Positions 1,301-38,211 of a stretch of 38,211 nt of DNA are shown here, piece after piece. Origin of the DNA: a virus (Duplodnaviria; Heunggongvirae; Uroviricota; Caudoviricetes); IMG/VR virus record IMGVR_UViG_2695420600_000008; one strand, given 5' to 3'. How positions within the stretch are numbered: the first letter of the stretch is position 1; every line of letters begins with the position of its first letter. A program made the position numbers and the translations under genes. The notes under the pieces were generated by a model. That model saw nothing but the letters and a program-made list of their open reading frames with translations. It was not told where the DNA came from and did no database searches.

Positions 1301-1457
1301 CTGCTCCCTCCCTGTGTGGCATGGTCGCATGTGCGTGCGGAGGGGGTTACTGCTTTTTGTTGTCGCCGTGGCGGGAGAATGGCGCAGGGGTGAGATTACG
1401 CGCGTGGTGGGTGATGATTGTTGCCGAATCATTTAACGGATACAAGGGGTTGAAGCT

Positions 1458-3154: not shown

Positions 3155-3208
3155 TAAGTAATATGCAGGCGGCGCAGTGCGTCGCCTCTGACTGAAAGGA
3201 GTTTCCTG

Positions 3209-3738: not shown

Positions 3739-6532
3739 TATCCGGGTCGCTTTCAGCGCCGTTGACAGGCTGACCCGGCCTGCCGAAAACGCCCGCCGCC
3801 TGATGGGGCAGTTTGGTGACTCCATCCAGCGAACGCAGGGGGCGATCAAAAATCTCGAGCGTCAGGCGCGTTCATTTGAGCGCGCCCGTGACGCTGTCAG
3901 TAAAGCGGATGCGGGCATCGTGAAAGCACGACGCCAGCTTAACGCCCTTAATCAGTTACAACGCACGGGTACAGTGCTCAGCGAAAAACAACAAAAGCTG
4001 ATGCAGCAGTTAAGCACCCGGCTTGAACGCCTGAATGAATCGCGCACACGGGAAATTCAGAAAATGCGGGAACTTGGCGGAGAGCTGAAACGCCACGGCA
4101 TTTCCCTGACAGGCAGCGATAACACCATCCAGCAGGCCATCAGACGCACCGGACAATACAACAACCAGCTTGAACGCGAACGGCGGGCGCTTGCGCGTGT
4201 AACGCAGGCGCGTGAGCGGTATTCACGCGCGCAGGAAACAGCGGGAAAACTGAAAACAGGTGGTGCGCTGGCAACAGGTGCGGCGGCAGCGGGCGGCTAT
4301 GCTGCCGGGCGTTTTTTGCAGCCCGCTATCGGGTTCGGGAAAGAGATGTCCCGTGTTCAGGCACTGACGCGAATCGATAAAAACAGCCCGCAGTTTAAGG
4401 CGCTGCGTGAGCAGGCGTTAAAACTTGGCTCTGAAACGCAGTTCACCGCAGGCGATGCCGCCAGTGGACAGGCATTTCTTGCAATGGCTGGTTTCACACC
4501 GCAGGCCATTCAGGCTGCGCTTCCCGGCGTGCTGAGCATGGCAACGGCTGGCGGTATGGACCTCGGCGAGACGGCGGATATTGGTTCCAATATCCTGACG
4601 CAGTTCGGCCTCTCTGCTGACCAGATGGACCGGGTCGGTGACACACTTACCGCAGCGTTTACCCGTACCAACACTGACCTTCGCGCACTGGGCGAAACCA
4701 TGAAATATGCAGGTCCGGTGGCGGGTAAGCTGGGAATATCGCTGGAGCAGGCCGCAGCGATGGCGGGCGTGCTGGCGAAGATGGGTATCAGGGGGAGTGA
4801 TGCAGGTACAGCGTTGCGTAAAAGCCTGGCCAATCTGTCATCACCGCCAAAGGCAGCGGCAGAAGCACTGAAAGAGCTGGGGGTGTCAGTTGCTGACGCC
4901 AAAGGCAAAATGCGCCCGATGGAGAATGTGCTGGCCGATCTCTATAAAGCCACCCGCAAATACGGGGAGGTTGACCGGGTATCGTTCTTTAAGGACATTG
5001 CCGGAGAAGAGGCTTTCACATCATTTATGGGCCTCGTTGATGCGGCAGGTGACGGCTTCTTAGCCAAACTGAGAAAAGAACTTGAAGGCGCGCGCGGTGA
5101 GGCAGAACGCACGGCAAAGGTTATGGCCAATAACCTTGATGGCAACCTGAAATCACTCGGCAGTGCATGGGAAGGTCTGCGTATTCGCATCAGTGATCTG
5201 GTTGACGGTCCGCTGCGTTCTGTCACGCAGTGGCTCACGCGGGTTGTCTCAAAGGTGACGGCGCTGGCGCAGGCCCACCCGGCACTGACGCGCCAGTTAC
5301 TGATAGCGGGAGGCGCACTGCTGGCGACAACAGCAACGGTTGGTTCGTTGTCTCTGGTTATTGGGGTGCTTCACGGGAAGCTGGCTACGTTGCGTCTCGG
5401 TTTTTCTCTCCTGACCGAATCAATGAATGTTGTCAGGGTTCTGCCTGCATTATGGGGAATGGTGACGGGTTCCGTTTCTTTACTTGGTGGCGCTATCGGG
5501 GCGCTGTTCAGTCCGGTTAGTCTTATCGTGGCTGCGCTTGCCGGAGCTGCCGTTCTTATCTGGAAATACTGGGATCCCATCAGGGCATTTTTTGCCGGGG
5601 TGTTCAGCGGGATTATGGAAAGGCTGACCCCGTTGCGCGAAACCTTTGAACGGTTTGGCCCTGTTTTTGATGTCGTGCGCGATGGGATTATTCAGGTCTT
5701 TAACTGGTTTAAATCGCTGCTGTCACCGATGGAGTCCAGCAAGGAAACGCTGGATAAATGTGCCAGTGCTGGCGAGATATTCGGTAACGTTCTTGGCGGT
5801 GCGTTACAACTTGTTCTGACACCTGCAAAAATGCTACTGGATACGCTGGCGTGGATACTTGAAAAACTTGGCGTCCTTCCGGATGAAGCGGAAAGGGCGC
5901 GCAAGAAAATCGAAGACGCACAGCGTGCGGCCATTCTTCAGGACAAGGTTGCCTTGCTTCAGGGGGACCTGGCGAAAATCAATCCGCCGAAGCCTGTGGA
6001 AAATGGCAATGGCACCGGAGGTGATAAACCCAAAGACAACAAACCGCTCACAGACAGCAATACCGGGACGCTACGCAGACTCAGCAAAATTGCTGATAAC
6101 ACAGGTAAGCTGGTTGATGAGACGAAAAAACGCATTGGCCCCGGCGATATTGTCTTTAAGAACCTGCCCCGCGCACTTGCTGTTCGTGGGGAGTGGCAGG
6201 AGCGGAAGATTGCGCAGGTCAGTAAGCCTGCCCCCGCAATTAATATCACACCCGTGGTCCCGGCTCCGCTGCCTCCGGCGCTGGTCCCTGTTGTTGCGGC
6301 CAGCTCCCGCCCGGTGGCGGAGGCCATACGCTCTCCAGTGGCATCAGTTCCTGTAACTTCCCGTAACCGGGAGCCTGTTGCCTCCGGATTTGGTGGTGAA
6401 ATTCATGTTCATCTGCATAACGTTGTTACGCAGAATCCCCGCGAACTGGCGAAACTGGTCGGTGAAATGGTCAGGGCAGAAATGGAACGGCGCGCCCGTG
6501 CCGGGCGTGGCAGTTTTTACGATAAAGATTGA
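3716..6532 (+). CDS. T: tail tape measure protein (P2 gpT-like)
   Basis: Long ORF (3689..6532); alternative starts GTG 3689, ATG 3716, ATG 3725. Ala/Gly-rich central region, hydrophobic segment LLIAGGALLATTATVGSLSLVIGVL, positioned after E/E'. Confidence 0.85.
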   Translation: MQTMKTLDIRVAFSAVDRLTRPAENARRLMGQFGDSIQRTQGAIKNLERQARSFERARDAVSKADAGIVKARRQLNALNQLQRTGTVLSEKQQKLMQQLSTRLERLNESRTREIQKMRELGGELKRHGISLTGSDNTIQQAIRRTGQYNNQLERERRALARVTQARERYSRAQETAGKLKTGGALATGAAAAGGYAAGRFLQPAIGFGKEMSRVQALTRIDKNSPQFKALREQALKLGSETQFTAGDAASGQAFLAMAGFTPQAIQAALPGVLSMATAGGMDLGETADIGSNILTQFGLSADQMDRVGDTLTAAFTRTNTDLRALGETMKYAGPVAGKLGISLEQAAAMAGVLAKMGIRGSDAGTALRKSLANLSSPPKAAAEALKELGVSVADAKGKMRPMENVLADLYKATRKYGEVDRVSFFKDIAGEEAFTSFMGLVDAAGDGFLAKLRKELEGARGEAERTAKVMANNLDGNLKSLGSAWEGLRIRISDLVDGPLRSVTQWLTRVVSKVTALAQAHPALTRQLLIAGGALLATTATVGSLSLVIGVLHGKLATLRLGFSLLTESMNVVRVLPALWGMVTGSVSLLGGAIGALFSPVSLIVAALAGAAVLIWKYWDPIRAFFAGVFSGIMERLTPLRETFERFGPVFDVVRDGIIQVFNWFKSLLSPMESSKETLDKCASAGEIFGNVLGGALQLVLTPAKMLLDTLAWILEKLGVLPDEAERARKKIEDAQRAAILQDKVALLQGDLAKINPPKPVENGNGTGGDKPKDNKPLTDSNTGTLRRLSKIADNTGKLVDETKKRIGPGDIVFKNLPRALAVRGEWQERKIAQVSKPAPAINITPVVPAPLPPALVPVVAASSRPVAEAIRSPVASVPVTSRNREPVASGFGGEIHVHLHNVVTQNPRELAKLVGEMVRAEMERRARAGRGSFYDKD

Positions 6533-6538
6533 GGAGTC

Positions 6539-7033
6539 ATGGCCATGATGATGATCTACGGCATGTTTGTTTTTGAGCTGCGTACATTGCCGCATCAGCA
6601 GTTACAGCAAAACAAAAGCTGGCGGCATGTGAAAAATGAACGCGTTAACCGTTCGGCAAGCTGGCAGTATATCGGTGCAGGTGATGAGCGCATCGTTCTT
6701 TCTGGTGTGCTTTATCCTGAAATTACAGGTGGCGAAGTGTCGCTGTCGCTGCTGACCACGCAGGCGTATACAGGACGACCCTGGCCTCTGATTGATGGCG
6801 TCGGGCAGATTTACGGCATGTATGTCCTGACCGAAACGAATACGACCCGCTCCGAGTTTGATCGCTACGGTAAGGCGAAAAAGATAGAATTTTCACTGAC
6901 TCTTGAACGCTGTGATGAGGATTTGCGGGAGCGCCTGCAATCCTCATCGTTCAGCGATATGCTGTCCGGCTTCAAAGATAAGGTAACATCATCCCTTAAC
7001 AGCGCGGCCAGTTCAGTTAAAGGGTTGTTCTGA
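6539..7033 (+). CDS. U: tail protein gpU
   Basis: 164-aa ORF; GAGGAG Shine-Dalgarno upstream; motifs FVF.L.T.P.Q.LQ...SWRH and LSG.L.PE.TGG resemble P2 gpU. Confidence 0.8.
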   Translation: MAMMMIYGMFVFELRTLPHQQLQQNKSWRHVKNERVNRSASWQYIGAGDERIVLSGVLYPEITGGEVSLSLLTTQAYTGRPWPLIDGVGQIYGMYVLTETNTTRSEFDRYGKAKKIEFSLTLERCDEDLRERLQSSSFSDMLSGFKDKVTSSLNSAASSVKGLF

Positions 7034-7068: not shown

Positions 7069-7656
7069 TTATTTTGTTTCCTGACTCTTCTCTATTGTTC
7101 CGATTGATTCTCCTGCGGGGTGGTAACGATAAATCGTCGATATACCAATGCCGTAAATTATTGCCAGTTGTTTTCTGTCGTGCCCGTTTTTGATCAGCCT
7201 TGCTATTTGCTCATGCTGTTCTTTTGTCAGCTTCGGTCGACGTCCGCCTGTGCGCCCCCGTGCGCGTGCTGCCGCCAGTCCGGCCAGTGTACGTTCAACA
7301 ATTAATTCACGTTCCATTTCAGCCAGGGCACCCATCACGTGGAAGAAAAAACGCCCCATTGGAGAAGATGTATCTATGCTGTCGGTCAGACTGCGAAAAT
7401 TAATTCCTCGCTCCCGTAGTTCCCCGACGAGAGAAATCAGATGTTTCATGCTTCGCCCGAGGCGATCCAGTTTCCAGACAACCAGCGTGTCACCTTTTTG
7501 AAGGCGCTTTAAAGCGCGTTTTAATCCCGGTCGGTCTGTCTTTGTCCCGCTTAATTTATCTTCAAATATTTGTTCACATCCTGCACAAACAAGAGCGTTT
7601 CGTTGCAGGTCTGTATTCTGGTCATTTGTTGATACCCTTACATAGCCAATCAGCAC
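7069..7656 (-). CDS. serine DNA invertase (Gin/Cin/Pin/Hin family)
   Basis: ORF 7069..7674 (-); likely GTG start at 7656 giving MLIGYVRVSTNDQNTDLQRNAL..., the canonical N-terminus of Gin-family invertases with the catalytic serine in the VSTNDQ motif; GGGAG SD upstream; C-terminal helix-turn-helix (GISTIYRY). Confidence 0.9.
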   Translation of the reverse strand: MLIGYVRVSTNDQNTDLQRNALVCAGCEQIFEDKLSGTKTDRPGLKRALKRLQKGDTLVVWKLDRLGRSMKHLISLVGELRERGINFRSLTDSIDTSSPMGRFFFHVMGALAEMERELIVERTLAGLAAARARGRTGGRRPKLTKEQHEQIARLIKNGHDRKQLAIIYGIGISTIYRYHPAGESIGTIEKSQETK

Positions 7657-7683
7657 GCTGAATCTCCCGTCCAAAAGCGCAAA

Positions 7684-7744
7684 TCATGCCATGCAGGCCG
7701 GAAACGGCCATTATCTAAAACCTCGGTTTACAGGAAACGGTAAA
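7684..7744. repeat. left arm of 61-bp perfect inverted repeat (pairs with 10778..10838)
   Basis: Reverse complement of 7684..7744 is identical to 10778..10838; contains the 26-bp gix-like site plus a 27-bp outer flank. Confidence 0.9.
7711..7736 (+). other. gix/hix-like 26-bp invertase crossover site 1 (TTATCTAAAACCTCGGTTTACAGGAA)
   Basis: Differs at one position from the Mu gix sequence as I recall it (TTATCCAAAACCTCGGTTTACAGGAA); central TC dinucleotide at 7723..7724. Confidence 0.85.
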
Positions 7745-8747
7745 CAAGGCTGGTAACGCCGTGCAAAAAAATGGCGATACGTTGTCCGGTGGACTTACTT
7801 TTGAAAACGACTCAATCCTTGCCTGGATTCGAAATACTGACTGGGCAAAGATTGGGTTTAAAAATAATTCGGATGCAGACACCGATTCCTACATGTGGTT
7901 TGAAACAGGCAACAACGGCAATGAATATTTCAAATGGAGACACCGCATCATTGGCACCCGGCCTAAAGACCTGATGAATCTTAAATGGAATGCTTTGTCT
8001 GTTCTTGTTGAAGCCCTTTTCAGCAGTGAAGTGAAAATATCGACAGTCAATGCACTGAGGATATTTAATTCATCTTTTGGTGCCATTTTTCGTCGTTCTG
8101 AAGAATGCCTGCATATCATCCCTACACGAGAGAATGAAGGGGAAAATGGTAATATAGGGCCACTACGCCCCTTTACGCTTAATCTCAGAACTGGCCGGAT
8201 AAGCATGGGGCATGGTCTTGATGTTACAGGGGATATATTTGCAAACCGTTTTGCAATTAACAGTAGTACCGGCATGTGGATTCATATGCGTGACCAGAAT
8301 GTTATTTTGGGACGTAATGCGGTATCCACTGATGGTGCTCAGGCTTTGCTCCGTCAGGACCATGCCGACCGCAAATTTATGATTGGCGGTCTGGGAAATA
8401 AGCAATTTGGCATCTACATGATTAATAACTCAAGGACAGCCAATGGCACCGATGGTCAGGCGTACATGGATAATAACGGGAACTGGCTTTGCGGCTCGCA
8501 AGTTATTCCCGGCAACTATGGCAATTTTGATTCCAGATATGTGAAAGATGTTCGACTTGGTTCACAGCAATATTATGGAGTGAACAACTGGCAAACATGG
8601 AATTTTCAGTGCCCGTCAGGCTATGTACTGACGGGGATTAACGTACAGGATACCGGAAAAAACTCTGCCGATAATATTGCAGGCGTTCATTACAGGCCAG
8701 TGCAAAAGTATATAAATGGCACTTGGTATAATGTGGCGAGTATTTAA
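7737..8747 (+). CDS. tail fibre C-terminal variable cassette Sv' (no start of its own; expressed only after inversion fuses it to H)
   Basis: Frame is open from crossover site 1 through ORF 7761..8747; encodes [46 protein letters not shown]...YVKDVRLG...[11 protein letters not shown], which matches the C-terminal portion of P2 gpH as I recall it. Confidence 0.8.
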
Positions 8748-8748
8748 T

Positions 8749-9276
8749 ATGATGCACTTAAAGAACATAAAAGCAGGTAATGCTAAAACAGTGGAGCAGT
8801 ATGAGTTAACAAAGAAGCACGGAGTCATCTGGCTTTACTCTGAGGACGGAAAAAACTGGTATGAGGAAGTGAAGAACTTTCAGCCAGACACAATAAAGAT
8901 TGTTTACGATGCAAATAATATTATTGTCGCCATCACCAAAGATGCCTCCACGCTTAACCCTGAAGGTTATAGCGTCGTTGAGGTTCCTGATATTACAGCT
9001 AATCGTCGTGCTGATGATTCCGGTAAGTGGATGTTTAAGGACGGAGCTGTGGTTAAACGGATTTATACGGCTGACGAACAGCAACAACAGGCCGAATCAC
9101 AAAAGGCCGCATTGCTTTCCGAAGCTGAATCAGTCATCCAGCCGCTGGAACGCGCTGTCAGGCTGAATATGGCGACGGACGAGGAACGCACACGACTGGA
9201 AGCATGGGAACGCTACAGTGTTCTGGTCAGCCGTGTGGATACGGCAAAGCCAGAATGGCCACAAAAGCCTGAGTAA
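8749..9276 (+). CDS. tail fibre assembly protein (tfa, P2 G / Mu U family) paired with cassette Sv'
   Basis: ORF 8716..9276; start ATG 8749 directly after the Sv' stop; [11 protein letters not shown]...[13 protein letters not shown]... typical Tfa N-terminus. Confidence 0.85.
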
Positions 9277-9282
9277 AAATTA

Positions 9283-9302
9283 AGGCCCGATATCGGGCCT
9301 TG
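9283..9302. terminator. bidirectional terminator hairpin between convergent tfa genes
   Basis: aaggcccgatatcgggcctt perfect hairpin with a flanking T-run. Confidence 0.55.
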
Positions 9303-9304
9303 TT

Positions 9305-9838
9305 TCATTCTGGTTGTTCGGGAAACGTTACTGGCAGGCTGGAGGTGTCTGTGGATTCAACCTTCTGCGCATAGAGCATCCACTCGGTTAATTTTTGTTT
9401 ATTCTCGTCGGAAATAATGCCCAGCCGTAGCTGTGAGTCCCATAGCTGGGTTTTATCCCTGACGAGCTGTAGCAGGCTTTGCTTTTCATTTTCCGCTTGT
9501 TGCCTCTGCTCTTCCCCGGTATAAGTTCGCTTTATCACTACGCCATCTTTGAACATCCATTTACCTGAAATATCAGCCCGGCGATTTGCTGTAATATCAG
9601 GAACCTCAACGACGCTTGCGCCTTCCGGATTAATTGCTGAAACATCCTTTTCAATACAAATAATAACGCCGTTGTGGTCATAGACCATTTTCAACGTATC
9701 AGGCTGAAAGTTCTTTTGTTCCTCATACCAGTTTTTCCCATCCTCTGTATAAAGCCATTTGATGTTAAATTGTTTCGTTAGCTGGTATTGCTCTTTTGTT
9801 TCAGGATTACCAGCAGAAATGTTTTTTAAGTGCATCAT
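9305..9838 (-). CDS. tail fibre assembly protein (tfa) paired with cassette Sv
   Basis: 177 aa; [40 protein letters not shown]...; paralogous to 8749..9276. Confidence 0.85.
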   Translation of the reverse strand: MMHLKNISAGNPETKEQYQLTKQFNIKWLYTEDGKNWYEEQKNFQPDTLKMVYDHNGVIICIEKDVSAINPEGASVVEVPDITANRRADISGKWMFKDGVVIKRTYTGEEQRQQAENEKQSLLQLVRDKTQLWDSQLRLGIISDENKQKLTEWMLYAQKVESTDTSSLPVTFPEQPE

Positions 9839-9840
9839 CG

Positions 9841-10785
9841 TTAAATACTCCCCGCGTTATACCACGTCCCATTAATGCAATACTGAATTGGCCTTGCCTG
9901 AGTTGTATCAATTAGTTCATCTCTGTTTGAGTTAACGGAACCGGTAACAACATAACCTGACCTGTCAGACCATCCGGGACCATTCCATGTCTGAACAGAT
10001 AACAGACCACCAAGGCGAATACCTGTAATAAACCTTGAGTTACATTCTGCCTGCGTATATGCACCAACATCTCCCGCAGAGGGTTTGCGGGTTGTGGTGT
10101 AAAACTCTGACCAGTCAGCTTCAAAGCCATAACCATCACGCGCTGAACGATAAAAAATACCGCCGTTCCTGTAATTCACGCGGAACTGTACAGCAGGGCA
10201 GCTCCCCGTATTCATATTGAAGTGGAGGATTAATGTCGATGCGCCACCAATGTTTGCGTTATAGACCCCGCTATTCCAGTTCCAGCCAACAGCTTTATCA
10301 TTTCCGACAGTGCTTCCTGTTTGCCCTAAAGCAAATGCAGGTTGTTGATTTTTCGTGTTGTAGTCTCGTCGCCAGCCAGGAGCGTAAGCATCACCATGAT
10401 TAATATAAGTGAATTGAGCGTTAGTAATTCCGCCACCGCTGGACGTGCTCGGCGTGGTAACGCGTATGGTCATTGCGCCGCGAGTGCCAATAACTTCCAC
10501 CACAGCACCTGCAAGACAAATATTTCCGCAACCTGTATCTGTAATGACCTTATTATTTGCATAAGCCCATGAGCCTTTGCACATCCAGTAAGGATGGTTA
10601 AATGCTCCCTGACTCTCCAGCCACGAAATAAATTGCGCGGTTGTCCAGACCTGACTATCGCCACCAATATTCAGCCATGAGCTATATGCGCGGCAGGCAC
10701 CAATATTTTTGGTGAAGGTATCTTTCCCCGGAATATCTGCGCCGTTCTGGTTTTTCTGTAATGCGCCAGAAGCCTGATTTACCGT
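9841..10785 (-). CDS. tail fibre C-terminal variable cassette Sv (start-less, in frame with crossover site 2)
   Basis: ORF 9841..10584 stays open upstream to site 2 (…[27 protein letters not shown]…); ends INGTWYNAGSI like cassette Sv'. Confidence 0.8.
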   Translation of the reverse strand, partial: TVNQASGALQKNQNGADIPGKDTFTKNIGACRAYSSWLNIGGDSQVWTTAQFISWLESQGAFNHPYWMCKGSWAYANNKVITDTGCGNICLAGAVVEVIGTRGAMTIRVTTPSTSSGGGITNAQFTYINHGDAYAPGWRRDYNTKNQQPAFALGQTGSTVGNDKAVGWNWNSGVYNANIGGASTLILHFNMNTGSCPAVQFRVNYRNGGIFYRSARDGYGFEADWSEFYTTTRKPSAGDVGAYTQAECNSRFITGIRLGGLLSVQTWNGPGWSDRSGYVVTGSVNSNRDELIDTTQARPIQYCINGTWYNAGSI

Positions 10786-10838
10786 TTCCTGTAAACCGAG
10801 GTTTTAGATAATGGCCGTTTCCGGCCTGCATGGCATGA
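10778..10838. repeat. right arm of 61-bp inverted repeat (pairs with 7684..7744)
   Basis: Perfect reverse-complement identity to 7684..7744. Confidence 0.9.
10786..10811 (-). other. gix-like crossover site 2 (exact reverse complement of site 1)
   Basis: TTCCTGTAAACCGAGGTTTTAGATAA read directly. Confidence 0.85.
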
Positions 10839-10841
10839 CTA

Positions 10842-11994
10842 AATAGCTGCGCTTAATACCGCTACACTTTTGCCAGCCCATGTTTGCCTCCGGGGAATGG
10901 GCTGACGGTTTCCATAAAATGGCGAACTTTTTTCAACAGTTGCCACATTGAGCTGCACTGATGATTACGCGTTATTGTGTCGTGAAGTGCCTGCCATAGC
11001 CGTTCAACATGATTCACCCATGGCGAGTAAACCGGCTGATAAATGACCCTGAACTTCGGGTTCTCCTTCAGCCAGCTCTGTGTTTCCCGGCTTTTGTGGA
11101 TAATGTAGTTGTCCACGATCAGCGTGATGGTTTTCGCCCGACGGTATGTCGCTTTAAGCCGCTTCAGCAGGCTGATGAACAGCGCCGAACTTTTGCTGTT
11201 GCCGCCCACACAGCTGACTTTACCTGTCCCGCTGTGCAGCGCTCCGGCCAGATAATATTTTTCATTCTGTCCCGGCGTGACCACCCGTTTTTGCTGTCCG
11301 CGCAGTTGCCAGTCCGCACCGATTTTGGGATTAAGATGGATATCCACTTCATCTTCATAAAAGACCGGATGCTCTGCGCTGCATTCGTCCAGTGCTTTAT
11401 GGATTGCTGCCATCTTTTCATCTTTATGCGGGTCACGGATACGCAGAGTTGGCGCAGCCCTTCGCCACACAATCCCCGCAGACGGCAACCAGCGGCGAAC
11501 GGTTCCGGCATTTAACTGGCAACCGGTTATCTCATTGATTTTTATTGCCAGCAGTTCTGTACTCCAGCGTGAACGCTGGTAGCCAAAGTCGCCGGGAGAA
11601 TGTTTTACCAGCTCACGTAACAGTGTGCAGATATGCTCAAACGGCCAGCGACGGGCACGCCCGGCAGGTAATGATTTCAGTCCCTCAACACCCGACTGCG
11701 TGAACCAGTTAATCCAGCGTCCAACAGAGGAACGGGCGCAGCAGAGCGTTCTGGCAACGTCGCTGACACGGTCGCCCCGGTGCAGCATCAGCATGGCAGT
11801 CAGTCTGCGGGCATAATTTTTATCGTGTGTTTTATGGATGGCTTTCTGCATCAGGCGTCGTTCGTCACGGGAAATTGGTGCTATGATCGGCATTGCTCAG
11901 TCCGGTTGGTGATTTGTTTTGATTTGGCGATTGATCAGATCGCACAATCCGGGCTAAGTTCCCTCAAAGTGATCTACTATTCCGCGCAGCTATT
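10842..11994 (-). mobile_element. complete IS630 insertion sequence (1153 bp) with TA target duplication in a CTAG site
   Basis: Element length 1153 bp; flanked by C-TA (10839..10841) and TA-G (11995..11997), the expected IS630 CTAG/TA signature; imperfect terminal inverted repeats starting aatagctgcgc; encodes a 343-aa transposase. Confidence 0.9.
10862..11893 (-). CDS. IS630 transposase (IS630/Tc1-mariner superfamily DDE transposase)
   Basis: 343-aa ORF wholly inside the element; size and position match IS630 transposase. Confidence 0.9.
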   Translation of the reverse strand: MPIIAPISRDERRLMQKAIHKTHDKNYARRLTAMLMLHRGDRVSDVARTLCCARSSVGRWINWFTQSGVEGLKSLPAGRARRWPFEHICTLLRELVKHSPGDFGYQRSRWSTELLAIKINEITGCQLNAGTVRRWLPSAGIVWRRAAPTLRIRDPHKDEKMAAIHKALDECSAEHPVFYEDEVDIHLNPKIGADWQLRGQQKRVVTPGQNEKYYLAGALHSGTGKVSCVGGNSKSSALFISLLKRLKATYRRAKTITLIVDNYIIHKSRETQSWLKENPKFRVIYQPVYSPWVNHVERLWQALHDTITRNHQCSSMWQLLKKVRHFMETVSPFPGGKHGLAKV

Positions 11995-13284
11995 TAGACC
12001 TCCTTTAATTTTGGCCCCGTGGCTGACAGATATAGCACCTGTTCTCAGATTTATAGCGAATGGCCTTAATGGGCCGATATTACCGTTTTCGCCTTGTCCT
12101 TCAGCCGTCGGAATGAAATGAAGAAAATCTTCTGAACGACGGAAAATTAGACCGAAGGTATCATTGAAAATTCGCAGCGCATTCACCGTGCCAATTTTCA
12201 GTTCTCCGGTCATTTTATCGCCGGAACGCTGAACGGCGTTACCAGCCTTGTTTACCGTTTCCTGTAAACCGAGGTATTCGATAACGGCAGCAACGGTCGA
12301 TTTCGCAAGAATATCCCGCCCGACTTTTGTCAGGGTTGCCAGGCTGGCGACATCATTCCCCGTAAAATACGGAAACCTGTCTGCCGCAGTAGCAAGCCCC
12401 GCCAGCGCCGTCAGAGTGGCATCTTTCGGTTGCTTACCCGCAAGCGCGTTAGTCATGGTGGTCGCAAAATTCGGGTCGTTGCCCAGCGCCGCCGCCAGCT
12501 CGTTCAGTGTGTTCAGTGCATCAGGCGAAGAGTCTACAAGTGCGGCAATCGCAGCCATAACGAAAGCCGTGCTTGCGATTTGGGTATTATTCGTTCCCTG
12601 TCGCGCAGTTGGTGTTGTTGGCGTTCCGGTCAGTGCCGGGCTGTTTAATGGGGCTTTCTTGTTCGTTTCATCCATTACTGCCTTAACGGCTTTTGGTGTC
12701 GCTGCCAGCGTTTCAGACGTGCTGTTGGTGGCGTTGCTGAGCTGGACAAGGCCTTTTGCGGTCAGCGAGGCGTCCGGGTGACGTCGTGACTGTTCATGCT
12801 CTTTCAGTTTGTCATCCACGTAATTCACTGTGGCCATCACCATGGTGTTATCCACGGTAAGCGCCACAGTGGCAGTGCTGGATACGGTCAGAATGGTGCG
12901 AAATGTTTGTGCACGTCCGGATCCTTCGGCAACGGTTGGCTTGTAACTTTCGGCAGTATTGCCTACCGCGATCAAATCGCCGTGCTCATCAAACACACCA
13001 ATTTCCCGGATCCAGAATCCGCCCGTTTCAGGAGGAATAACCAGCTCCGCAATAATGTGGTTCTGATGTGTTGCGTCCAGGGTGACGCGATTAACGGTAT
13101 GTCGCCACACCTCATGCACAAGACGGGTCTGCTTACTGTCTGGCGTGGGTAAAGTACCGCCGCCGTCACCCACGGCCATATGTGTCAGGCGGACAGGTTT
13201 CCCATCTGGCGCGGTTGCCTGCGCTAATTTTTTTGCACCCGTATCGGTGATAATGGTTTTAAATTTTCGTGTTGTGGTACTCAT
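11977..13284 (-). CDS. H: tail fibre protein gpH: constant N-terminal part fused in the current orientation to a truncated third cassette and terminated inside IS630 (functionally truncated fibre)
   Basis: 435-aa ORF; N-terminal ~330 aa resemble P2 gpH (…TAKGLVQLSNATNSTSETLAATPKAVK…AAVIEYLGLQETV); after crossover site 3 it encodes a collagen-like stub (…[22 protein letters not shown]…GAKIKGG) and then reads LNSCAE-stop from IS630 sequence. Confidence 0.8.
   Translation of the reverse strand: MSTTTRKFKTIITDTGAKKLAQATAPDGKPVRLTHMAVGDGGGTLPTPDSKQTRLVHEVWRHTVNRVTLDATHQNHIIAELVIPPETGGFWIREIGVFDEHGDLIAVGNTAESYKPTVAEGSGRAQTFRTILTVSSTATVALTVDNTMVMATVNYVDDKLKEHEQSRRHPDASLTAKGLVQLSNATNSTSETLAATPKAVKAVMDETNKKAPLNSPALTGTPTTPTARQGTNNTQIASTAFVMAAIAALVDSSPDALNTLNELAAALGNDPNFATTMTNALAGKQPKDATLTALAGLATAADRFPYFTGNDVASLATLTKVGRDILAKSTVAAVIEYLGLQETVNKAGNAVQRSGDKMTGELKIGTVNALRIFNDTFGLIFRRSEDFLHFIPTAEGQGENGNIGPLRPFAINLRTGAISVSHGAKIKGGLNSCAE
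12259..12284 (-). other. gix-like crossover site 3 (TTATCGAATACCTCGGTTTACAGGAA on the coding strand), in-frame junction of constant H
   Basis: Two mismatches to sites 1/2 (TCGAAT vs TCTAAA); unlike sites 1 and 2 it has no in-frame TAA, so H reads through it; 12233..12275 is also the reverse complement of the inner flank of site 1. Confidence 0.8.
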
Positions 13285-26112: not shown

Positions 26113-26424
26113 TCATTCAGGAAATAATGCCCGGATATTCCCTGCTATCTGACTGGTTATCTGTGCGGTTGGTACTGGCTGTGGCACGGGGCGTTCTGTC
26201 CTGGTTTGTGTCACCGATAACGCCTCATCGTCAGCCCATGCAGCCAGTCGGTAAGCCTCTGCTGGATTCATTTTCAGAAGTGCCAGCCCGGCCAGAAAAG
26301 CCACGCGTTGGCCGCTTTTGCGGGCTTCTGGTGTAAGGCTGCCCAGCCAGGCGCATGCTTCGCTTTCGTTCTTGACGGCCGCAGGCTTCAGATAGAAACT
26401 TATCCGTCTGGTTGGTGTCGTCAT
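26113..26424 (-). CDS. parR: ParR/StbB-like centromere-binding protein (putative)
   Basis: ORF 26113..26559; preferred start 26424, giving ~104 aa directly downstream of parM; resembles plasmid R1 ParR as I recall it (RRISFYLKP vs RRTIAFKLNP; C-terminal IRALFPE vs LRSLFPKE). Confidence 0.55.
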   Translation of the reverse strand: MTTPTRRISFYLKPAAVKNESEACAWLGSLTPEARKSGQRVAFLAGLALLKMNPAEAYRLAAWADDEALSVTQTRTERPVPQPVPTAQITSQIAGNIRALFPE

Positions 26425-26428
26425 TGGT

Positions 26429-27388
26429 TTACTCCTTGTCCATTGCGTACAGCCCATTAACCAGAGCAAACTGTGGCACCCCGTCCGCGATGAAAGTCGC
26501 ATTAACTCCGCAGGCTTCGCGGATAGCGGGTGCCACAATCTCCGCCCCTCCACCGACAACCATCACCCGCCCGTAACCCGAAAAACCCGCCAGCGCGCGG
26601 ATCACGCGTTGTTTCAGTGTTTCTTCCTTTTCACGAATAACCGCCATCAGGCTGGCGTAATGCGCGTCATTGTGGATGTGCTGGCGCAGCCAGGCTTCAT
26701 CATGGCGATGTTCGATAATGGTATTGGCGATGTGGTGACTGGTGCGCATACCGTTAGTGGCCATCACCGACAGTACGGCATCGGCCATCAGAGAAACGCC
26801 TACGTGTGGATCGCAAAACACCTGGCTGATACCTGCCAGTTGCCCCTGAACCTTTGCCACATCCAGCGTGGTTCCGCCCAAATCCACAATCAGCAGGGAT
26901 TCAAACGGACTCATGTCAGCCAGTGCCTTAAAGCCAGCCGGAATGGATTCAGGCATAACCCGCACGTTACGGATAGTGAATGCTTCGCCGTTCTGGTACT
27001 CCACCGGGCGCATAACGTTCGCTTTTTTGCGGTTGATGTTGGCCATGTCCGGCTGTGCGTTTGTGTCGAAATACTCGCTCAGTGGCAGGGTGACAACCAC
27101 ATCCACCTCCTGTGGCGTGATGCCTGATTTGACCAGCGCGTGATGAATGGCAATGACATTTACATCGCTGTACTGGTATTGCGTGTCGGTTGTCTGGACA
27201 AAGCGATCGCTGACCGGATCAAAACCATAGCGCACGCCATCAAGCATGTAGTTCGCGGGCTGCATGCCACCGAACGGCGCAGACCATTCCGACTTGAAGC
27301 TGTTCGGGCTGATGGCGTTGCGGCGTTCGCCGTTCTCAGTCCATGCCAGCTTGATGTTGGTGGAGCCGTCGTCGATACAAATTTTCAT
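26429..27388 (-). CDS. parM: ParM/StbA-like actin-type plasmid segregation ATPase
   Basis: 319 aa; MKICIDDGSTNIKLAW…ISPNSF…YSDVNVIAIHHAL…VMPESIPAG…LIVDLGGTTLDV…GVSL…VVGGGAEI strongly resembles R1 ParM including the actin-fold phosphate loops. Confidence 0.8.
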   Translation of the reverse strand: MKICIDDGSTNIKLAWTENGERRNAISPNSFKSEWSAPFGGMQPANYMLDGVRYGFDPVSDRFVQTTDTQYQYSDVNVIAIHHALVKSGITPQEVDVVVTLPLSEYFDTNAQPDMANINRKKANVMRPVEYQNGEAFTIRNVRVMPESIPAGFKALADMSPFESLLIVDLGGTTLDVAKVQGQLAGISQVFCDPHVGVSLMADAVLSVMATNGMRTSHHIANTIIEHRHDEAWLRQHIHNDAHYASLMAVIREKEETLKQRVIRALAGFSGYGRVMVVGGGAEIVAPAIREACGVNATFIADGVPQFALVNGLYAMDKE

Positions 27389-31994: not shown

Positions 31995-32333
31995 TTATAA
32001 ATCAGCCTGTTTAATAAAACTTTGCCCGCGAAGCAGACGATCAACCGTGCGAAGTGCTTCGTATAATGTGAAATCCTGCCCGAACTGATTGTCGCCACAG
32101 CTCAGTGCAAAAATGCGGTTTCCGGTAAACGGATTGCGTGGGCATTTGTGGATCACGATTCCAGCTTTCTCAATCAGCCAGGCGTGCTCGCCGATTTGTT
32201 TTACTGGGTAGCCATCCGGCGTTGCGTGTGTATCACTCAGGCTGTAGCGGATGTTGCTGCGTGATGCACTGGTAGTGAAACGGTTAGCGTGGCGTTCTGT
32301 TCCGGTACAAAAATTACGGCGTTGCTTCAGCAT
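31995..32333 (-). CDS. hypothetical early protein (112 aa)
   Basis: ORF directly downstream of the cox-position gene. Confidence 0.45.
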   Translation of the reverse strand: MLKQRRNFCTGTERHANRFTTSASRSNIRYSLSDTHATPDGYPVKQIGEHAWLIEKAGIVIHKCPRNPFTGNRIFALSCGDNQFGQDFTLYEALRTVDRLLRGQSFIKQADL

Positions 32334-32347
32334 AAAATGACACCTCG

Positions 32348-32626
32348 TTATTTTGTCATCTGCACGTATTTCTCTGCGTTTCTGATGGTTTTCAGGAAAA
32401 TTGCGAAGAGATTTACTTTGCGTTTTGTGTTTCTTCCTTCTTGAGTAACGGGAATTACCGATCTATCAGCCTGCCTTCTTACAGCGAGAATGCTTTGATT
32501 TGTGCGTTTCGCATAATCCTCTAGGCTTTCTTCAAGTACCGGTAGCCCATGTTCATTACGGTATGGGTAGAACGCCGCCAAACGCTCAAAATCCGCTTGT
32601 TCGTATGTGTTAAGGACTTTTGCCAT
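32348..32626 (-). CDS. Cox/Apl-position early regulator (putative excisionase/repressor of lysogeny)
   Basis: 92-aa first gene of the leftward early operon, divergent from the C repressor gene; assigned by position only. Confidence 0.45.
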   Translation of the reverse strand: MAKVLNTYEQADFERLAAFYPYRNEHGLPVLEESLEDYAKRTNQSILAVRRQADRSVIPVTQEGRNTKRKVNLFAIFLKTIRNAEKYVQMTK

Positions 32627-32721
32627 GGTGTGATAACCTATTCAATCTGGTGCTATTTGTGGCTCTTTGTAGCGTCAAGTGGTACTCAACTGATAACCAA
32701 TATAGTATTCAGGTGCACACC
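32627..32721. promoter_or_regulatory. immunity switch region: divergent early (Pe) and repressor (Pc) promoters with candidate operators
   Basis: 95-bp gap between divergent cox-like and C genes; direct repeat TGATAACC at 32628..32635 and 32683..32690. Confidence 0.45.
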
Positions 32722-33033
32722 ATGTCAATAGAGATATCAAAGAAGCTAAAAGCAATTCGAGAATCTGAGGGGCTTAGTCAGGCAAAGTTCGCGGATTCAA
32801 TAGGTATTGCGGTTGGTACGGTTAAGCAATACGAGACTGGTATTCGAGGTGTGGGAACGGAGGTTTTACTGAAAATCACAATGCACCCGGAATTTAAAAA
32901 ATACACTACGTGGTTGATGAGTAACGAAACAAATGAGGCTGCTGGGCAGATCAGTCCTTCTCTCTCCCCTGATGGGCCAGAAAACACATCGTCTTCTCAA
33001 AAATCCCGCAAGACTGGCACACAGCCCGGCTAA
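32722..33033 (+). CDS. C: P2 C-type immunity repressor
   Basis: ORF 32620..33033; preferred start ATG 32722 giving 103 aa; helix-turn-helix LSQAKFADSIGIAVGTVKQYETG and the C-terminal …FKKYTTWLMSNE…GQISP… pattern resemble P2 C. Confidence 0.75.
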   Translation: MSIEISKKLKAIRESEGLSQAKFADSIGIAVGTVKQYETGIRGVGTEVLLKITMHPEFKKYTTWLMSNETNEAAGQISPSLSPDGPENTSSSQKSRKTGTQPG

Positions 33034-33082
33034 TCATGGAACGCTGGGGGCATGGTGGTCTTGTAACGCTGGGGCTTCACGA

Positions 33083-34060
33083 ATGAGCATAAAATCAATT
33101 CCGGGAGGGTATCTTCTTGACATGCGTCCTGAGGGGCGTAAAGGCAAACGCATTCGCAAAAAATTTAAAACGAAATCGGATGCAGTTTTATATGAGCGGT
33201 GGGTGCTGGCGCAACAGCATAACAATGAGTGGAAAGGAAACTCCATTGATCGCCGTCCGCTGTCAGTGCTTATTGACTTGTGGTGGAAATACCACGGCCA
33301 GCTAATGAAGTCAGGGCATAACACGCGCCTTAAATTGCTGCGCTTGAGTGAGGCAATGGATGACCCGTGCGTGCATAAACTTAATACAACGATGCTCACC
33401 GAGCTACGTGTGTCCAGGATAGAGCAGGGGATACAGCCCAGCACCATAAATCGAGAGATTGGGGCGTTAAGCGCGATGTTTACCGCACTCATCTCATCCG
33501 GCCATTTTCTTAACGATAACCCCGTTCAAGGCCTTAAAGGAATGAAGGTTAACGAGCGTGAAATGGGATATCTGAGTAAGTCTGAATGTGTTCAGTTGCT
33601 GGATGCACTGGCTGAAAATCCCGATGAACGGCTGGCCGTCGAAATCCTTCTGTCGACCGGGGCGCGATGGGGCGAGGTAGCGGCACTGGAGCAGCGCCGT
33701 GTTCTTCATTGTCGAATCACTTTTTCAAAAACGAAGAACAGCAAAAACCGTACCGTTCCTATTTCTGAAAGCCTGTTTGAAAAGATCAAAAAACGGGGCG
33801 GGAAACTGGTGTTTCCGACGCTGGATTATTCATTGGTTCGCGATGTCATCAAAACGGTCGCACCTGATGTTCCTGACGGCCAGGCTGTTCATGCGCTGCG
33901 CCACACCTTCGCCAGTCATTTCATGATGAACGGCGGCAATATTCTGACGCTCCAGAAAATTCTGGGGCACGCAAAGATTCAGACAACGATGATTTATGCC
34001 CATCTTGCGCCGGATTACTTGCAGGATGCGGTGAGGTTTAATCCCTTGGGAGGAATGTAA
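33083..34060 (+). CDS. int: P2-type integrase (tyrosine recombinase)
   Basis: ORF 32933..34060; preferred start 33083 (MSIKSIPGGYLLDMRPEGRKGKRIRKKF…), ~325 aa; C-terminal catalytic motifs LSTGARWGE, HALRHTFASHFMMNGG.ILTLQKILGH and MIYAHLAPDYLQDA (catalytic Tyr) match P2 Int. Confidence 0.9.
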   Translation: MSIKSIPGGYLLDMRPEGRKGKRIRKKFKTKSDAVLYERWVLAQQHNNEWKGNSIDRRPLSVLIDLWWKYHGQLMKSGHNTRLKLLRLSEAMDDPCVHKLNTTMLTELRVSRIEQGIQPSTINREIGALSAMFTALISSGHFLNDNPVQGLKGMKVNEREMGYLSKSECVQLLDALAENPDERLAVEILLSTGARWGEVAALEQRRVLHCRITFSKTKNSKNRTVPISESLFEKIKKRGGKLVFPTLDYSLVRDVIKTVAPDVPDGQAVHALRHTFASHFMMNGGNILTLQKILGHAKIQTTMIYAHLAPDYLQDAVRFNPLGGM

Positions 34061-34062
34061 CT

Positions 34063-34563
34063 ATGGAAATAAAAAAACCTACAAAAAAAGAGTTATATGA
34101 CTATTTACTATCGAAATATATAGAAGATAAATGCAAAGAAGAAGCTGATGAAATCAATAAGAAGTCGATGAGTCGTGTCAAAAAACATAAAGAGCGGCTG
34201 ATGGAGATTACGCCAGAAATCTTCTTCCGTTTCTTGTCTGAGAAGGGGGTCTCCAGTGTCTGCCCTTCATGTGGATCGTCGCGATTATCTGTTCCAGAAA
34301 GTATGGATCTTTGCTGGGATAAAAATAAGAAACCAGAAAATTTTAACAATCTACCCCTGGAGGAACAGAGTGAGTTAATTAAAGAGAACATAAAGCATTA
34401 TGTATCTTATGCTTTTTTGGGTGATGTTAAGAGCATACCTGATATGCGCAAAACTTATTACACGCTGCATTGCCTGAATTGTGGTTACCTGAGCCTTTAT
34501 CGTACGTCTGCGGTGCTGAAGTGGTTGGAGAAAGACAAAGCGCAGGATGGTGATAATGGGTAA
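34063..34563 (+). CDS. hypothetical zinc-ribbon protein (166 aa), AT-rich moron gene
   Basis: Low GC by eye; two CxxC pairs (CPSCGSS … CLNCGY); lysine/glutamate-rich N-terminus; no homologue recognised. Confidence 0.55.
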   Translation: MEIKKPTKKELYDYLLSKYIEDKCKEEADEINKKSMSRVKKHKERLMEITPEIFFRFLSEKGVSSVCPSCGSSRLSVPESMDLCWDKNKKPENFNNLPLEEQSELIKENIKHYVSYAFLGDVKSIPDMRKTYYTLHCLNCGYLSLYRTSAVLKWLEKDKAQDGDNG

Positions 34564-35101
34564 TGTAGCAAGAAATCTTTTCGGTAATTCAGCAGGTAGT
34601 GTGTCGCATTCTGAGCGTGATGTGCTTTATCATGGTGGCGATGGCGGCAGTAGTGGAGGCGGAATGTCAGATAAACTTGAAAGGCGAATTGAGCGGCTCG
34701 AAGGTGATTTATCGCTAACAAGAAACGACCTTGCGACGCTTGCTGAACGCACTACAAACCTCTCAACTAAAGCCGATGTTGGTGAGGTGAAAGGTGAACT
34801 CAAAGCAGACATAGCACATCTGAAAGGTGATCTTGAATGCGATATTGCGAATCTGAAAGGTGAGCTTAAATCTGATACAGCTAACCTGAAAGAGCAGCTC
34901 AAATCAGACATTAACAGCCTGAAGGGTGAGCTTACCGAAGCGATGGATAAACGCTTTGACAAGATTATGGATGAGATGAATCGGCGGTTTGACAAGGTTG
35001 ATGATAATACGAAGTGGCGTTGGAGTGGCATTATTGTGCCAGTGTGCACAACCATTTTCACAGCGGCGGTTGCTGTATTTGTTGCTAAATTTGTTGGCTG
35101 A
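34547..35101 (+). CDS. hypothetical tail-anchored coiled-coil membrane protein with five 11-residue repeats (184 aa)
   Basis: Repeats LKGELKADIAH / LKGDLECDIAN / LKGELKSDTAN / LKEQLKSDINS / LKGELTEAMDK; glycine-rich N-terminus; C-terminal transmembrane helix WSGIIVPVCTTIFTAAVAVFVAKFVG; overlaps the upstream gene by 17 nt. Confidence 0.55.
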   Translation: MVIMGNVARNLFGNSAGSVSHSERDVLYHGGDGGSSGGGMSDKLERRIERLEGDLSLTRNDLATLAERTTNLSTKADVGEVKGELKADIAHLKGDLECDIANLKGELKSDTANLKEQLKSDINSLKGELTEAMDKRFDKIMDEMNRRFDKVDDNTKWRWSGIIVPVCTTIFTAAVAVFVAKFVG

Positions 35102-35293
35102 TGATCCACAAATTGACCACATCTCTGTTATTTGTTGTGGTTGGCTGTGTTTTTGTGTGTCTGTAAGTCTTTGATAATTACCTAACTTATTGATTTTTGT
35201 TTGTGTTTATGGCCGCTCTGCGGCCTTTTTTCTTTTCACTGTCGAAGAGTCACCGTAAAATCAACGCCATGACACTTCAGCAGAACGGATACC

Positions 35294-36274
35294 ATGCTGA
35301 CACTTGCCCGCCAACAACAGCGACAAAATATTCGCTGGTTATTATGCCTGTCAGTTTTGATGCTGCTGGCGCTTCTCTTAAGCCTTTGCGCCGGTGAACA
35401 ATGGATTTCGCCAGGTGACTGGTTTACTCCTCGTGGCGAACTGTTCGTCTGGCAAATTCGCCTGCCACGTACGCTGGCTGTATTGCTGGTTGGTGCGGCG
35501 CTGGCTATATCCGGCGCTGTAATGCAGGCGTTGTTTGAAAATCCTCTGGCAGAACCTGGACTACTTGGCGTCTCTAACGGCGCAGGCGTGGGGCTTATCG
35601 CCGCGGTATTGCTTGGGCAAGGGCAACTCCCCAACTGGGCGCTAGGGCTGTGTGCGATTGCTGGCGCGCTTATCATCACTTTAATACTCTTACGTTTCGC
35701 CCGTCGTCATCTTTCGACCAGTCGGTTATTGCTGGCTGGCGTTGCATTAGGGATTATCTGTAGCGCACTAATGACGTGGGCTATCTACTTTTCCACCTCT
35801 GTTGATTTACGTCAGCTGATGTACTGGATGATGGGCGGTTTTGGCGGCGTAGACTGGCGGCAAAGCTGGCTGATGCTGGCATTGATCCCCGTGTTGTTGT
35901 GGATCTGTTGTCAGTCCAGGCCGATGAATATGTTAGCACTTGGCGAGATCTCGGCGCGGCAACTGGGTTTACCCCTGTGGTTCTGGCGCAATGTGCTGGT
36001 GGCAGCGACCGGCTGGATGGTTGGCGTCAGTGTGGCGCTGGCGGGTGCTATCGGCTTTATTGGTCTGGTGATCCCACATATTCTTCGGTTGTGTGGTTTA
36101 ACCGATCATCGCGTATTACTTCCCGGCTGCGCGCTGGCAGGGGCGAGCGCAGTGCTGCTGGCCGATATTGTAGCGCGCCTGGCATTAGCTGCCGCAGAGC
36201 TGCCTATTGGCGTGGTCACCGCAACGTTGGGTGCGCCGGTGTTTATCTGGTTATTGTTAAAAGCAGGACGTTAG
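35294..36274 (+). CDS. btuC: vitamin B12 ABC transporter permease BtuC
   Basis: 326 aa, [25 protein letters not shown]…, full-length match to E. coli BtuC as I know it. Confidence 0.95.
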
Positions 36275-36336
36275 CCGCAAAAAGACGGTCTATGATTAAA
36301 AGCTAAGATTTTTACTGACCACACCCAGGAGAAACG

Positions 36337-36888
36337 ATGCAAGATTCCATTCTGACGACCGTAGTGAAAGATATCGACGGTGAAGTGACCACGCTGGAGA
36401 AGTACGCCGGTAATGTGCTGTTGATTGTCAATGTCGCCTCAAAGTGTGGCTTAACGCCGCAATATGAGCAGTTGGAGAATATTCAGAAAGCCTGGGCCGA
36501 TCGAGGTTTTGTGGTGCTGGGATTCCCGTGCAACCAGTTTCTGGAACAAGAACCGGGCAGCGATGAAGAGATTAAAACTTACTGTACCACCACATGGGGG
36601 GTGACGTTCCCGATGTTCAGTAAGATTGAAGTTAACGGCGAAGGACGCCATCCGCTGTATCAAAAATTGATTGCCGCAGCGCCGACCGCAGTCGCGCCGG
36701 AAGAGAGCGGATTCTATGCCCGTATGGTCAGCAAAGGTCGTGCACCGCTGTACCCTGATGATATTTTATGGAATTTTGAGAAATTTTTAGTTGGCAGGGA
36801 CGGATTGGTCATCCAGCGTTTTTCCCCGGATATGACGCCGGAAGACCCCATTGTGATGGAAAGCATTAAACTGGCGTTGGCAAAATAA
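36337..36888 (+). CDS. btuE: glutathione peroxidase-family protein BtuE
   Basis: 183 aa; [47 protein letters not shown]…; btuCED synteny. Confidence 0.95.
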
Positions 36889-37637
36889 TGTCTATTGTGA
36901 TGCAGTTACAGGATGTTGCGGAATCTACCCGCCTGGGGCCACTTTCTGGCGAGGTTCGGGCTGGGGAGATCCTGCACCTGGTGGGGCCGAATGGCGCGGG
37001 TAAGAGTACCTTACTGGCACGAATGGCCGGAATGACCAGCGGTAAGGGAAGTATTCAGTTCGCGGGGCAACCACTGGAAGCATGGTCCGCAACAAAACTC
37101 GCGCTGCATCGCGCCTATCTTTCACAACAGCAGACGCCGCCGTTTGCAATGCCGGTCTGGCACTATCTGACACTGCATCAGCACGATAAAACGCGTACCG
37201 AACTACTGAATGATGTCGCAGGGGCGCTGGCTCTTGATGACAAACTCGGACGTAGCACCAATCAACTTTCCGGCGGTGAATGGCAACGCGTACGTCTTGC
37301 TGCGGTGGTGCTGCAAATCACACCACAAGCCAATCCCGCAGGCCAATTGCTGCTTCTTGATGAGCCGATGAACAGTCTTGATGTTGCGCAACAAAGTGCG
37401 TTAGACAAAATTCTGAGCGCTCTGTGTCAGCAAGGACTGGCGATTGTGATGAGCAGTCACGATCTCAACCACACATTGCGTCATGCGCATCGGGCGTGGT
37501 TGCTAAAAGGTGGAAAAATGCTGGCCAGTGGACGCAGAGAAGAGGTGCTCACGCCGCCAAATCTGGCGCAGGCCTATGGGATGAATTTTCGCCGTCTGGA
37601 TATCGAAGGTCACAGAATGCTGATTTCGACCATCTGA
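36888..37637 (+). CDS. btuD: vitamin B12 ABC transporter ATP-binding protein BtuD
   Basis: 249 aa; Walker [10 protein letters not shown], signature LSGGEWQR, Walker B LLLLDEP. Confidence 0.95.
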
Positions 37638-37714
37638 TTTCATTAGTATCTTGAAAATCGGGTAATTACGACGCTAAATTAATGCAAGAATAAAAAACAG
37701 AGGAACCGTACGGA

Positions 37715-38179
37715 ATGCGTTTCTGCCTTATTTTGATCACAGCACTGTTTCTGGCCGGGTGTAGCCACCATAAAGCACCGCCGCCAAATGCCAGACTTTC
37801 TGATTCGATTACCGTTATTGCCGGTTTGAACGACCAGCTACAAAGCTGGCATGGCACGCCGTATCGTTATGGTGGCATGACGCGGCGCGGTGTGGACTGT
37901 TCGGGATTTGTGGTTGTAACGATGCGCGATCGTTTCGATTTGCAGCTGCCCCGAGAAACCAAAGAACAAGCCTCTATCGGCACGCAAATTGATAAAGACG
38001 AGTTGCTGCCTGGTGACCTGGTCTTTTTCAAAACGGGTTCCGGACAAAATGGTTTGCATGTAGGTATTTACGATACCAACAACCAATTTATCCACGCCTC
38101 TACCAGCAAGGGAGTGATGCGTTCCTCACTTGATAATGTCTATTGGCAGAAAAATTTCTGGCAGGCGAGACGAATCTAA
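37715..38179 (+). CDS. nlpC: NlpC/P60-family lipoprotein NlpC
   Basis: 154 aa; lipoprotein signal LFLAGCS; catalytic Cys in DCSGFV; follows btuD as in E. coli. Confidence 0.9.
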   Translation: MRFCLILITALFLAGCSHHKAPPPNARLSDSITVIAGLNDQLQSWHGTPYRYGGMTRRGVDCSGFVVVTMRDRFDLQLPRETKEQASIGTQIDKDELLPGDLVFFKTGSGQNGLHVGIYDTNNQFIHASTSKGVMRSSLDNVYWQKNFWQARRI

Positions 38180-38211
38180 ATAGCTGCGCGGAATAGTAGA
38201 TCACTTTGAGG
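38179..38211 (+). mobile_element. terminus of a second IS630 copy (truncated by the window edge), inverted relative to the copy at 10842..11994
   Basis: 38176..38211 is the exact reverse complement of 11962..11997, i.e. 33 bp of IS630 end plus the C-TA target junction; insertion begins immediately after the nlpC stop codon. Confidence 0.8.

Follow-up and report, generated by a model that had tools for sequence, protein, structure and literature searches.

Does the right-hand end of this prophage-bearing stretch of DNA mark one edge of an invertible chromosomal segment, or is it the place at which an assembly stopped inside a repeat? The window, by which we mean the whole 38,211-bp stretch that was analyzed, is the entire contig CXCN01000033.1 of assembly GCA_001251255.1, a draft made from short reads of an isolate in the Shigella sonnei lineage. 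An earlier note made from its sequence had proposed that the last 36 bp belong to a second copy of the insertion sequence IS630, set against the nlpC stop codon and inverted relative to an internal copy, so that the two would bracket most of a prophage together with btuCED-nlpC. The account that we very probably have to accept is a plain one: the second copy is an ordinary IS630 of this lineage located in the nlpC stop codon, and the contig breaks there in a repeat that has at least 10 identical copies. The features on which this account draws are collected in Table 1.

Table 1. Positions of the features discussed, in coordinates of the 38,211-bp window
Feature	Position	Strand	Basis
IS2 terminus, left contig end	1..41	-	100% match to thousands of E. 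coli sites
Serine invertase	7069-7656		Resolvase and HTH_7 domains
Inverted crossover sites, core TTCCTGTAAACCGAGGT	7707-7765 and 10756-10815		
Crossover site B and copy of 23-nt invertase-proximal flank, then CTA (non-native left flank of copy 1)	10751..10841	-	Comparison with L029, L030, and L031
IS630 copy 1, complete, 1,153 bp	10842..11994	-	100% identity to annotated IS630; domains
Transposase ORF of copy 1, 343 aa	10862-11893	-	DDE_3 and HTH
X, first 235 bp of a third tail-fibre variable cassette, cut by copy 1	11995..12229	-	~98% identity to E. coli prophage cassettes
Interval between inverted IS630 copies, 26,184 bp	11995..38178		Gene content, homology
P2-like prophage part of interval, 23.2 kb, tail fibre H through integrase plus two cargo genes	11995-35210		Gene content
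Chromosomal part of interval, 2.97 kb, btuC, btuE, btuD, nlpC	35211-38178		Homology to prophage-free E. coli
nlpC, NlpC/P60 lipoprotein, 154 aa	37715..38179	+	ORF; Pfam NLPC_P60 E = 1.1e-34
C and TA, left half of CTAG target	38176..38178	+	Comparison of empty and filled sites
IS630 copy 2, first 33 nt (IRL, transposase-proximal end), cut by contig end	38179..38211	+	Reverse complement of 11962-11994

Results

The Window Ends Inside a Second, Inverted IS630

Read on the opposite strand, positions 38176-38211 are identical to 11962-11997, with no mismatches, and this 36-mer is present twice in the window, on the plus strand at its end and on the minus strand at the internal position. No match to it was found in 100 dinucleotide-preserving shuffles of the window even with three mismatches permitted. 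The reading of the window end as an IS630 end at a CTA/TAG junction is upheld. In a repeat search the match was one base longer, at 37 nt (11962-11998 and 38175-38211). The 11-nt terminal motif AATAGCTGCGC, searched for across the window, occurs at 10842, 11994, and 38179 only, the first two of these sites being the ends of the internal element (copy 1) and the third one end of copy 2. Because the motif found at the ends of copy 1 recurs at 38179, we assign 38179-38211 to the IRL end of a second IS630 in the opposite orientation. Immediately before it, 38176 is the C of CTAG and 38177-38178 is the TA, the duplicated target dinucleotide. The two homologous copies are inverted, copy 1 lying on the minus strand and the IRL of copy 2 on the plus strand, and the orientation proposed earlier is confirmed by the transposase gene: that of copy 1 reads from the minus strand, and related genomes have that of copy 2 on the plus strand.

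Assignment of the element to IS630 is based on a transposase with DDE_3 and HTH domains, a length of ~1.15 kb, imperfect terminal repeats, a TA duplication, and identity to annotated IS630. The transposase of copy 1 matches DDE_3 (E = 9.9e-25) and, at its N terminus, HTH_23, HTH_32, HTH_29, and HTH_28, and an identical 343-aa transposase is encoded by copy 2 in relatives. The terminal inverted repeats are imperfect, the ends of copy 1 sharing AATAGCTGCGC..AATA with the first 11 nt identical, and the element is flanked as C-TA...TA-G, with TA at 10840-10841 and 11995-11996. Over 214 of 214 nt it is identical to regions annotated as "IS630-like element IS630 family transposase" in enteroinvasive E. 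coli (EIEC) and E. coli plasmids. According to the work cited in PMC2170065 (Tenzen 1990; Tenzen & Ohtsubo 1991), IS630 comes from S. sonnei and targets the TA in CTAG, and S. sonnei is significantly enriched in IS630 (PMC8072062). Length, transposase, repeats, and TA-in-CTAG duplication are the same here as in that S. sonnei element, the founder of the IS630 family in the Tc1/mariner superfamily; the element itself is no different, and its insertion sites alone are specific.

The same 343-aa transposase is encoded at no fewer than 10 sites of CP104423.1. All 10 copies examined there are 1,153 bp long with zero to one mismatches, and all 10 are flanked by TA, in the target context CTAG in eight and TTAA in two. 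Near-identical copies at 10 or more sites, together with a strain-specific extra copy, suggest that transposition would have been recent.

A Full IS630 Follows nlpC in Complete Genomes of the Lineage

Complete genomes of the same lineage were retrieved by using prophage proteins encoded near btuC as handles. An exact lookup of the NlpC protein returned IS-free E. coli only; the protein is identical to the commonest E. coli allele, present in 78,836 index blocks, which is too common to be useful. CP026802.1, which is S. sonnei ATCC 29930 (PMC9430107), is 100% identical to window positions 32065-38211, and CP032523.1 differs from the window by four mismatches over 14.1 kb. In both genomes a full IS630 runs on past the point that matches 38211, with 0 mismatches in 1,153 to the reverse complement of copy 1, and after it come TA, G, the usual spacer between nlpC and ydiV, and ydiV itself; the sequence after the element in CP026802.1 is TAGTATGTCG..., and CP032523.1 is alike. 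A complete 1,153-bp IS630 continues the same junction in the loci L014, L019, and L042, and the filled site in relatives reads cgaatCTA-[IS630]-TAGtatgtcg. The order nlpC-IS630-ydiV was collinear in every relative examined (13 of 26 contigs in one set and 19 of 29 in another), the btuCED-nlpC-IS630-ydiV place of CP104423.1 standing for the 19 of 29 contigs read. Continuation of the downstream sequence as IS630, on which the earlier note had made its reading depend, is thus what the complete genomes of relatives display, over the full 1,153 bp.

From these relatives we infer that, in this isolate too, a full IS630 and then ydiV would lie beyond 38211. Judged by the same comparisons, the insertion in the nlpC stop codon appears to be common to the S. 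sonnei lineage, lineage-fixed, and old. It is also already known, in the sense that nlpC::IS630 is present in public complete S. sonnei genomes, that of the type strain ATCC 29930 included. A synthetic 409-nt query for the nlpC-IS630 junction was matched in 0 of 5,426 complete E. coli genomes, a result that directed attention to Shigella, and 32-33-mers across that junction were absent from a genome-contig collection and a metagenome-contig collection, which evidently contain no S. sonnei.

IS630 Overlaps the nlpC Stop Codon and Leaves NlpC Intact

At the corresponding site E. coli carries cgaatCTAGtatgtcg, and the empty site CGAATCTAGTATG is shared by E. coli and S. boydii, also where the same prophage is present. 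IS-free genomes, namely those of E. coli and of CP026836.1, which is S. boydii (PMC12817139), read CGAAT-CTAG-TATGTCG, several of them with the same prophage. The comparison with IS630-free genomes that had been proposed as a check accordingly sets an empty CTAG against a filled C-TA-[IS]-TA-G at nlpC. The target is the TA of CTAG, and the TAG of that CTAG is the nlpC stop codon. IS630 integrated into this TA, overlapping the stop, and the TA was duplicated in the process.

The stop codon is TAG in the empty site and TAA in the window (38177-38179), composed of the target TA and the first A of IS630. The earlier description of an IS630 abutting the nlpC stop holds in that the two adjoin, but it falls short in that the relation is not mere abutment: the element overlaps the stop codon, and its first base completes it. 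Since that A restores a TAA stop, the NlpC protein is unchanged.

In relatives, the IS630 transposase gene lies between nlpC and ydiV and is codirectional with both. A perfect 15-bp hairpin starts 12 nt past the nlpC stop in the empty site (-28.9 kcal/mol, z = -6.7 by folding) and is probably the nlpC terminator. In the empty-site locus L001 (4490-4522), this hairpin is flanked by an A-run and a short U-run. The IS630 insertion of S. sonnei displaces it 1,155 bp downstream, and the 246-bp region upstream of ydiV is intact after insertion. A scan for consensus promoters and terminators around the filled site of L014 gave fewer sites than in shuffles and was uninformative. That the insertion may affect nlpC termination or downstream expression, as suggested earlier, is a reasonable textbook expectation, and the functional consequences are probably small.

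Both Contig Ends Are Assembly Breaks in Insertion Sequences

Both ends of the contig sit inside IS termini, 41 nt of IS2 on the left and 33 nt of IS630 on the right. In NZ_AP018488.1 the match to window positions 1-41 is located 51 bp upstream of an "IS3-like element IS2 family transposase," and the IS-free relative L015 is collinear with the window only from position 40 on. Because IS2 and IS630 termini are found there, the two contig ends are assembly breaks in multi-copy ISs. The window end at 38211 is such a break in multi-copy IS630 and no biological boundary, and structural claims across IS630 anywhere in this contig therefore need read-level support. As in other short-read assemblies that break at multi-copy ISs, both ends lie a few tens of nucleotides into an IS; what differs from the usual pattern is that copy 1 was assembled through. 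That the assembler resolved this element and broke off in copy 2 makes one ask how far its route across copy 1 can be trusted. The left IS2 terminus is inserted just downstream of prophage gpD (ORF 191-1432, minus strand), and the ogr/attL side of the prophage therefore lies outside the contig.

The Interval Between the Copies and the Prophage That Occupies It

The ~26 kb between the copies does contain, as claimed, most of the prophage (23.2 kb) and btuCED-nlpC. The prophage part encodes H, baseplate, head, terminase, and portal proteins, gpA, and integrase, with two cargo genes. From 35211 onward, a point within the ihfA terminator hairpin, the sequence is again homologous to prophage-free E. 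coli. It is possible in principle that RecA-dependent recombination between the copies could invert the 26 kb. This pair of elements is not special in that respect, because the lineage has at least 10 identical copies and thus many possible partners.

The P2-like prophage lies between ihfA and btuC, inserted into the ihfA terminator hairpin (GGCCGCTCTGCGGCCTTTTTT; 35195-35240), and S. boydii CP026836.1 and several E. coli genomes have the same prophage at this site. On the P2 map, the tail operon, the H/tail-fibre genes, and gpD all point in one direction; in the window, the tail operon FI-FII-E-T-U (1458-7033) is on the strand opposite to the H/tail-fibre genes (12000-13284) and gpD. The IS-free relatives L026 and L028 are arranged alike, and the opposed tail operon is therefore native to the prophage lineage rather than the product of an IS-mediated inversion. 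A partition-like pair, ParM/StbA and Plasmid_stab_B, adjoins gpA (26113-27388). Between the integrase gene and the attachment site (34063-35101) are the two cargo genes, one encoding a 166-aa protein that has four cysteine pairs of the CxxC type and belongs to no Pfam family, and the other a 184-aa coiled-coil protein with a C-terminal hydrophobic segment; Pfam and PADLOC scans of these genes returned weak coiled-coil matches only.

Positions 7069-10838 form a Pin/Cin-type invertible tail-fibre switch that comprises two genes for tail-fibre assembly and two alternative cassettes for the fibre C terminus. Among relatives the switch segment is present in both orientations (L029 versus L023, L025, and L030), and it thus flips in nature. 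The region also differs among individual strains: ATCC 29930 has an IS3-family insertion near cox/C of the same prophage (L019 6783-7939), CP032523.1 has two IS3-family insertions in the invertible segment (L024 12977-14133 and 15937-17093), and btuE of S. boydii CP026836.1 is split into two ORFs (L013 12275-12825). These differing IS3-family insertions and the split btuE point to ongoing, strain-specific IS decay of the region.

Copy 1 Has Non-Collinear Flanks

Copy 1 is unique to this contig, the relatives examined being without it, and an exact-protein lookup placed the chimeric 435-aa tail-fibre protein H', which ends inside copy 1, on this contig only. At copy 1 the window is 1,473 bp longer than S. 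sonnei ATCC 29930; IS630 and TA account for 1,155 bp of the difference, and 318 bp are other sequence. This 1,473-bp module (10751-12288) is made up of crossover site C, a 235-bp foreign cassette, IS630, a 23-nt invertase-proximal flank, and crossover site B, and it is bracketed by sites B and C as direct repeats of the Pin/Cin type. By way of crossover site C (12230-12288), the cassette fragment, X, is fused to the constant portion of gene H. X-like cassettes with ~98% identity adjoin the invertase gene in other E. coli prophages (for example, L031); the identity of X to this prophage's own cassette at 8028-8194 is only 68%. In L031 the cassette reads AATAG-CTAG-ACCTCC, a genuine IS630 target. 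The left flank of copy 1 is not the remainder of the X cassette, and it forms an inverted repeat with 7684-7771 (88 nt at 89%).

When the flanks of copy 1 were joined without the IS, the resulting sequence matched 0 of 5,426 E. coli genomes, these being 318 bp shorter there, and a simple insertion was therefore rejected for copy 1. The 32-33-mers across its two junctions (J1 and J2) were found 0 times in the genome-contig and metagenome-contig collections, evidently without S. sonnei, and none of the 10 IS630 neighborhoods of CP104423.1 offered a tail-fibre cassette context as a donor of copy 1. Three further routes to the module were considered, a tandem lysogen, a deletion between direct IS630 copies, and a Pin inversion between sites A and C, none of which works in one step without unobserved intermediates. 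Copy 1 is the outcome either of a further rearrangement, IS630-IS630 or invertase-mediated, or of an assembler path that joined the ends of different copies. Because it is unique to the contig and its flanks are non-collinear, the assembled geometry around it is less secure than it looks.

Discussion

The identification of the window end as the start of a lineage IS630 has to be set against other readings of the same sequence. The window itself shows only 33 nt of copy 2, from which it might be argued that no full element starts here and that this terminus is a lone IS630 end or an artefact of assembly, such as a chimeric read; with the same junction and a full element present in many independent assemblies of the lineage, and with a canonical C-TA target at the junction, such an explanation is exceedingly improbable. 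A separate proposal accepts both elements and holds that they have recombined in this isolate, or do so appreciably, so that the 26-kb segment exists in both orientations and the contig represents one isomer or the choice of the assembler. The copies are 1,153 bp long, inverted, and identical where both are visible, neither pairing of the copy 1 flanks matches an IS-free genome, and precedents exist in Shigella: 103 of 114 reconstructed inversions fall on Shigella branches (PMC8072062), and lineages of S. sonnei have fixed IS-flanked inversions of 20-45 kb (PMC12795559). Those lineage-fixed inversions are flanked by IS4- or IS3-family copies (PMC12795559) and share the substrate geometry found here, identical inverted IS copies tens of kilobases apart, but they were seen in complete genomes and confirmed by long reads, whereas the present case offers a substrate only, with one arm visible as 33 nt. 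The prophage sequence on both sides of copy 1 in the contig corresponds to the non-inverted state. The collinearity of nlpC-IS630-ydiV in all relatives examined might seem to count against inversion as well, but none of these genomes carries copy 1, so that this inversion could not take place in them. Taking both sides together, we regard recombination of the two copies in this isolate as very unlikely.

The geometry of the bracketing pair could also be partly wrong, if the assembled copy 1 joins the ends of two different IS630 copies through an assembler path or an earlier recombination. The right flank continues the cassette CTAG seen in L031 and the left flank consists of site B with the invertase-proximal flank; the IS-free join, the H' protein, and the junction k-mers were searched for with the results given above (0 of 5,426 E. 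coli genomes, this contig only, and absence from two other collections); and 1,153 bp is too long for short reads to span. Nevertheless, both flanks come from the same 1.5-kb stretch of the tail-fibre switch of the same prophage, a remarkable coincidence if 10 or more copies had been mis-joined at random, and each junction k-mer of copy 1 must be present in the reads. We therefore consider a composite copy 1 unlikely. To the more elaborate idea that the 1,473-bp module arose by invertase-mediated capture or exchange of a cassette fragment with its IS, we attach very little probability. If it were true, the import of DNA into the tail-fibre switch would be due to a DNA invertase working between molecules or on direct sites, and together with the copy at nlpC, nested invertible segments would be possible, of ~3 kb and 4.6 kb through Pin and of 26 kb through IS630 homology.

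For the nlpC insertion, the reading that we prefer remains an ordinary, lineage-wide IS630 in the stop codon, with the contig broken inside it. The importance of this finding is small, and its practical value is interpretive, in that the end of the window is to be read as an assembly break. As a biological matter it is a curiosity of the S. sonnei lineage: an element that targets CTAG landed in a TAG stop codon, and its first base rebuilt the stop as TAA, so that the protein is unaltered.
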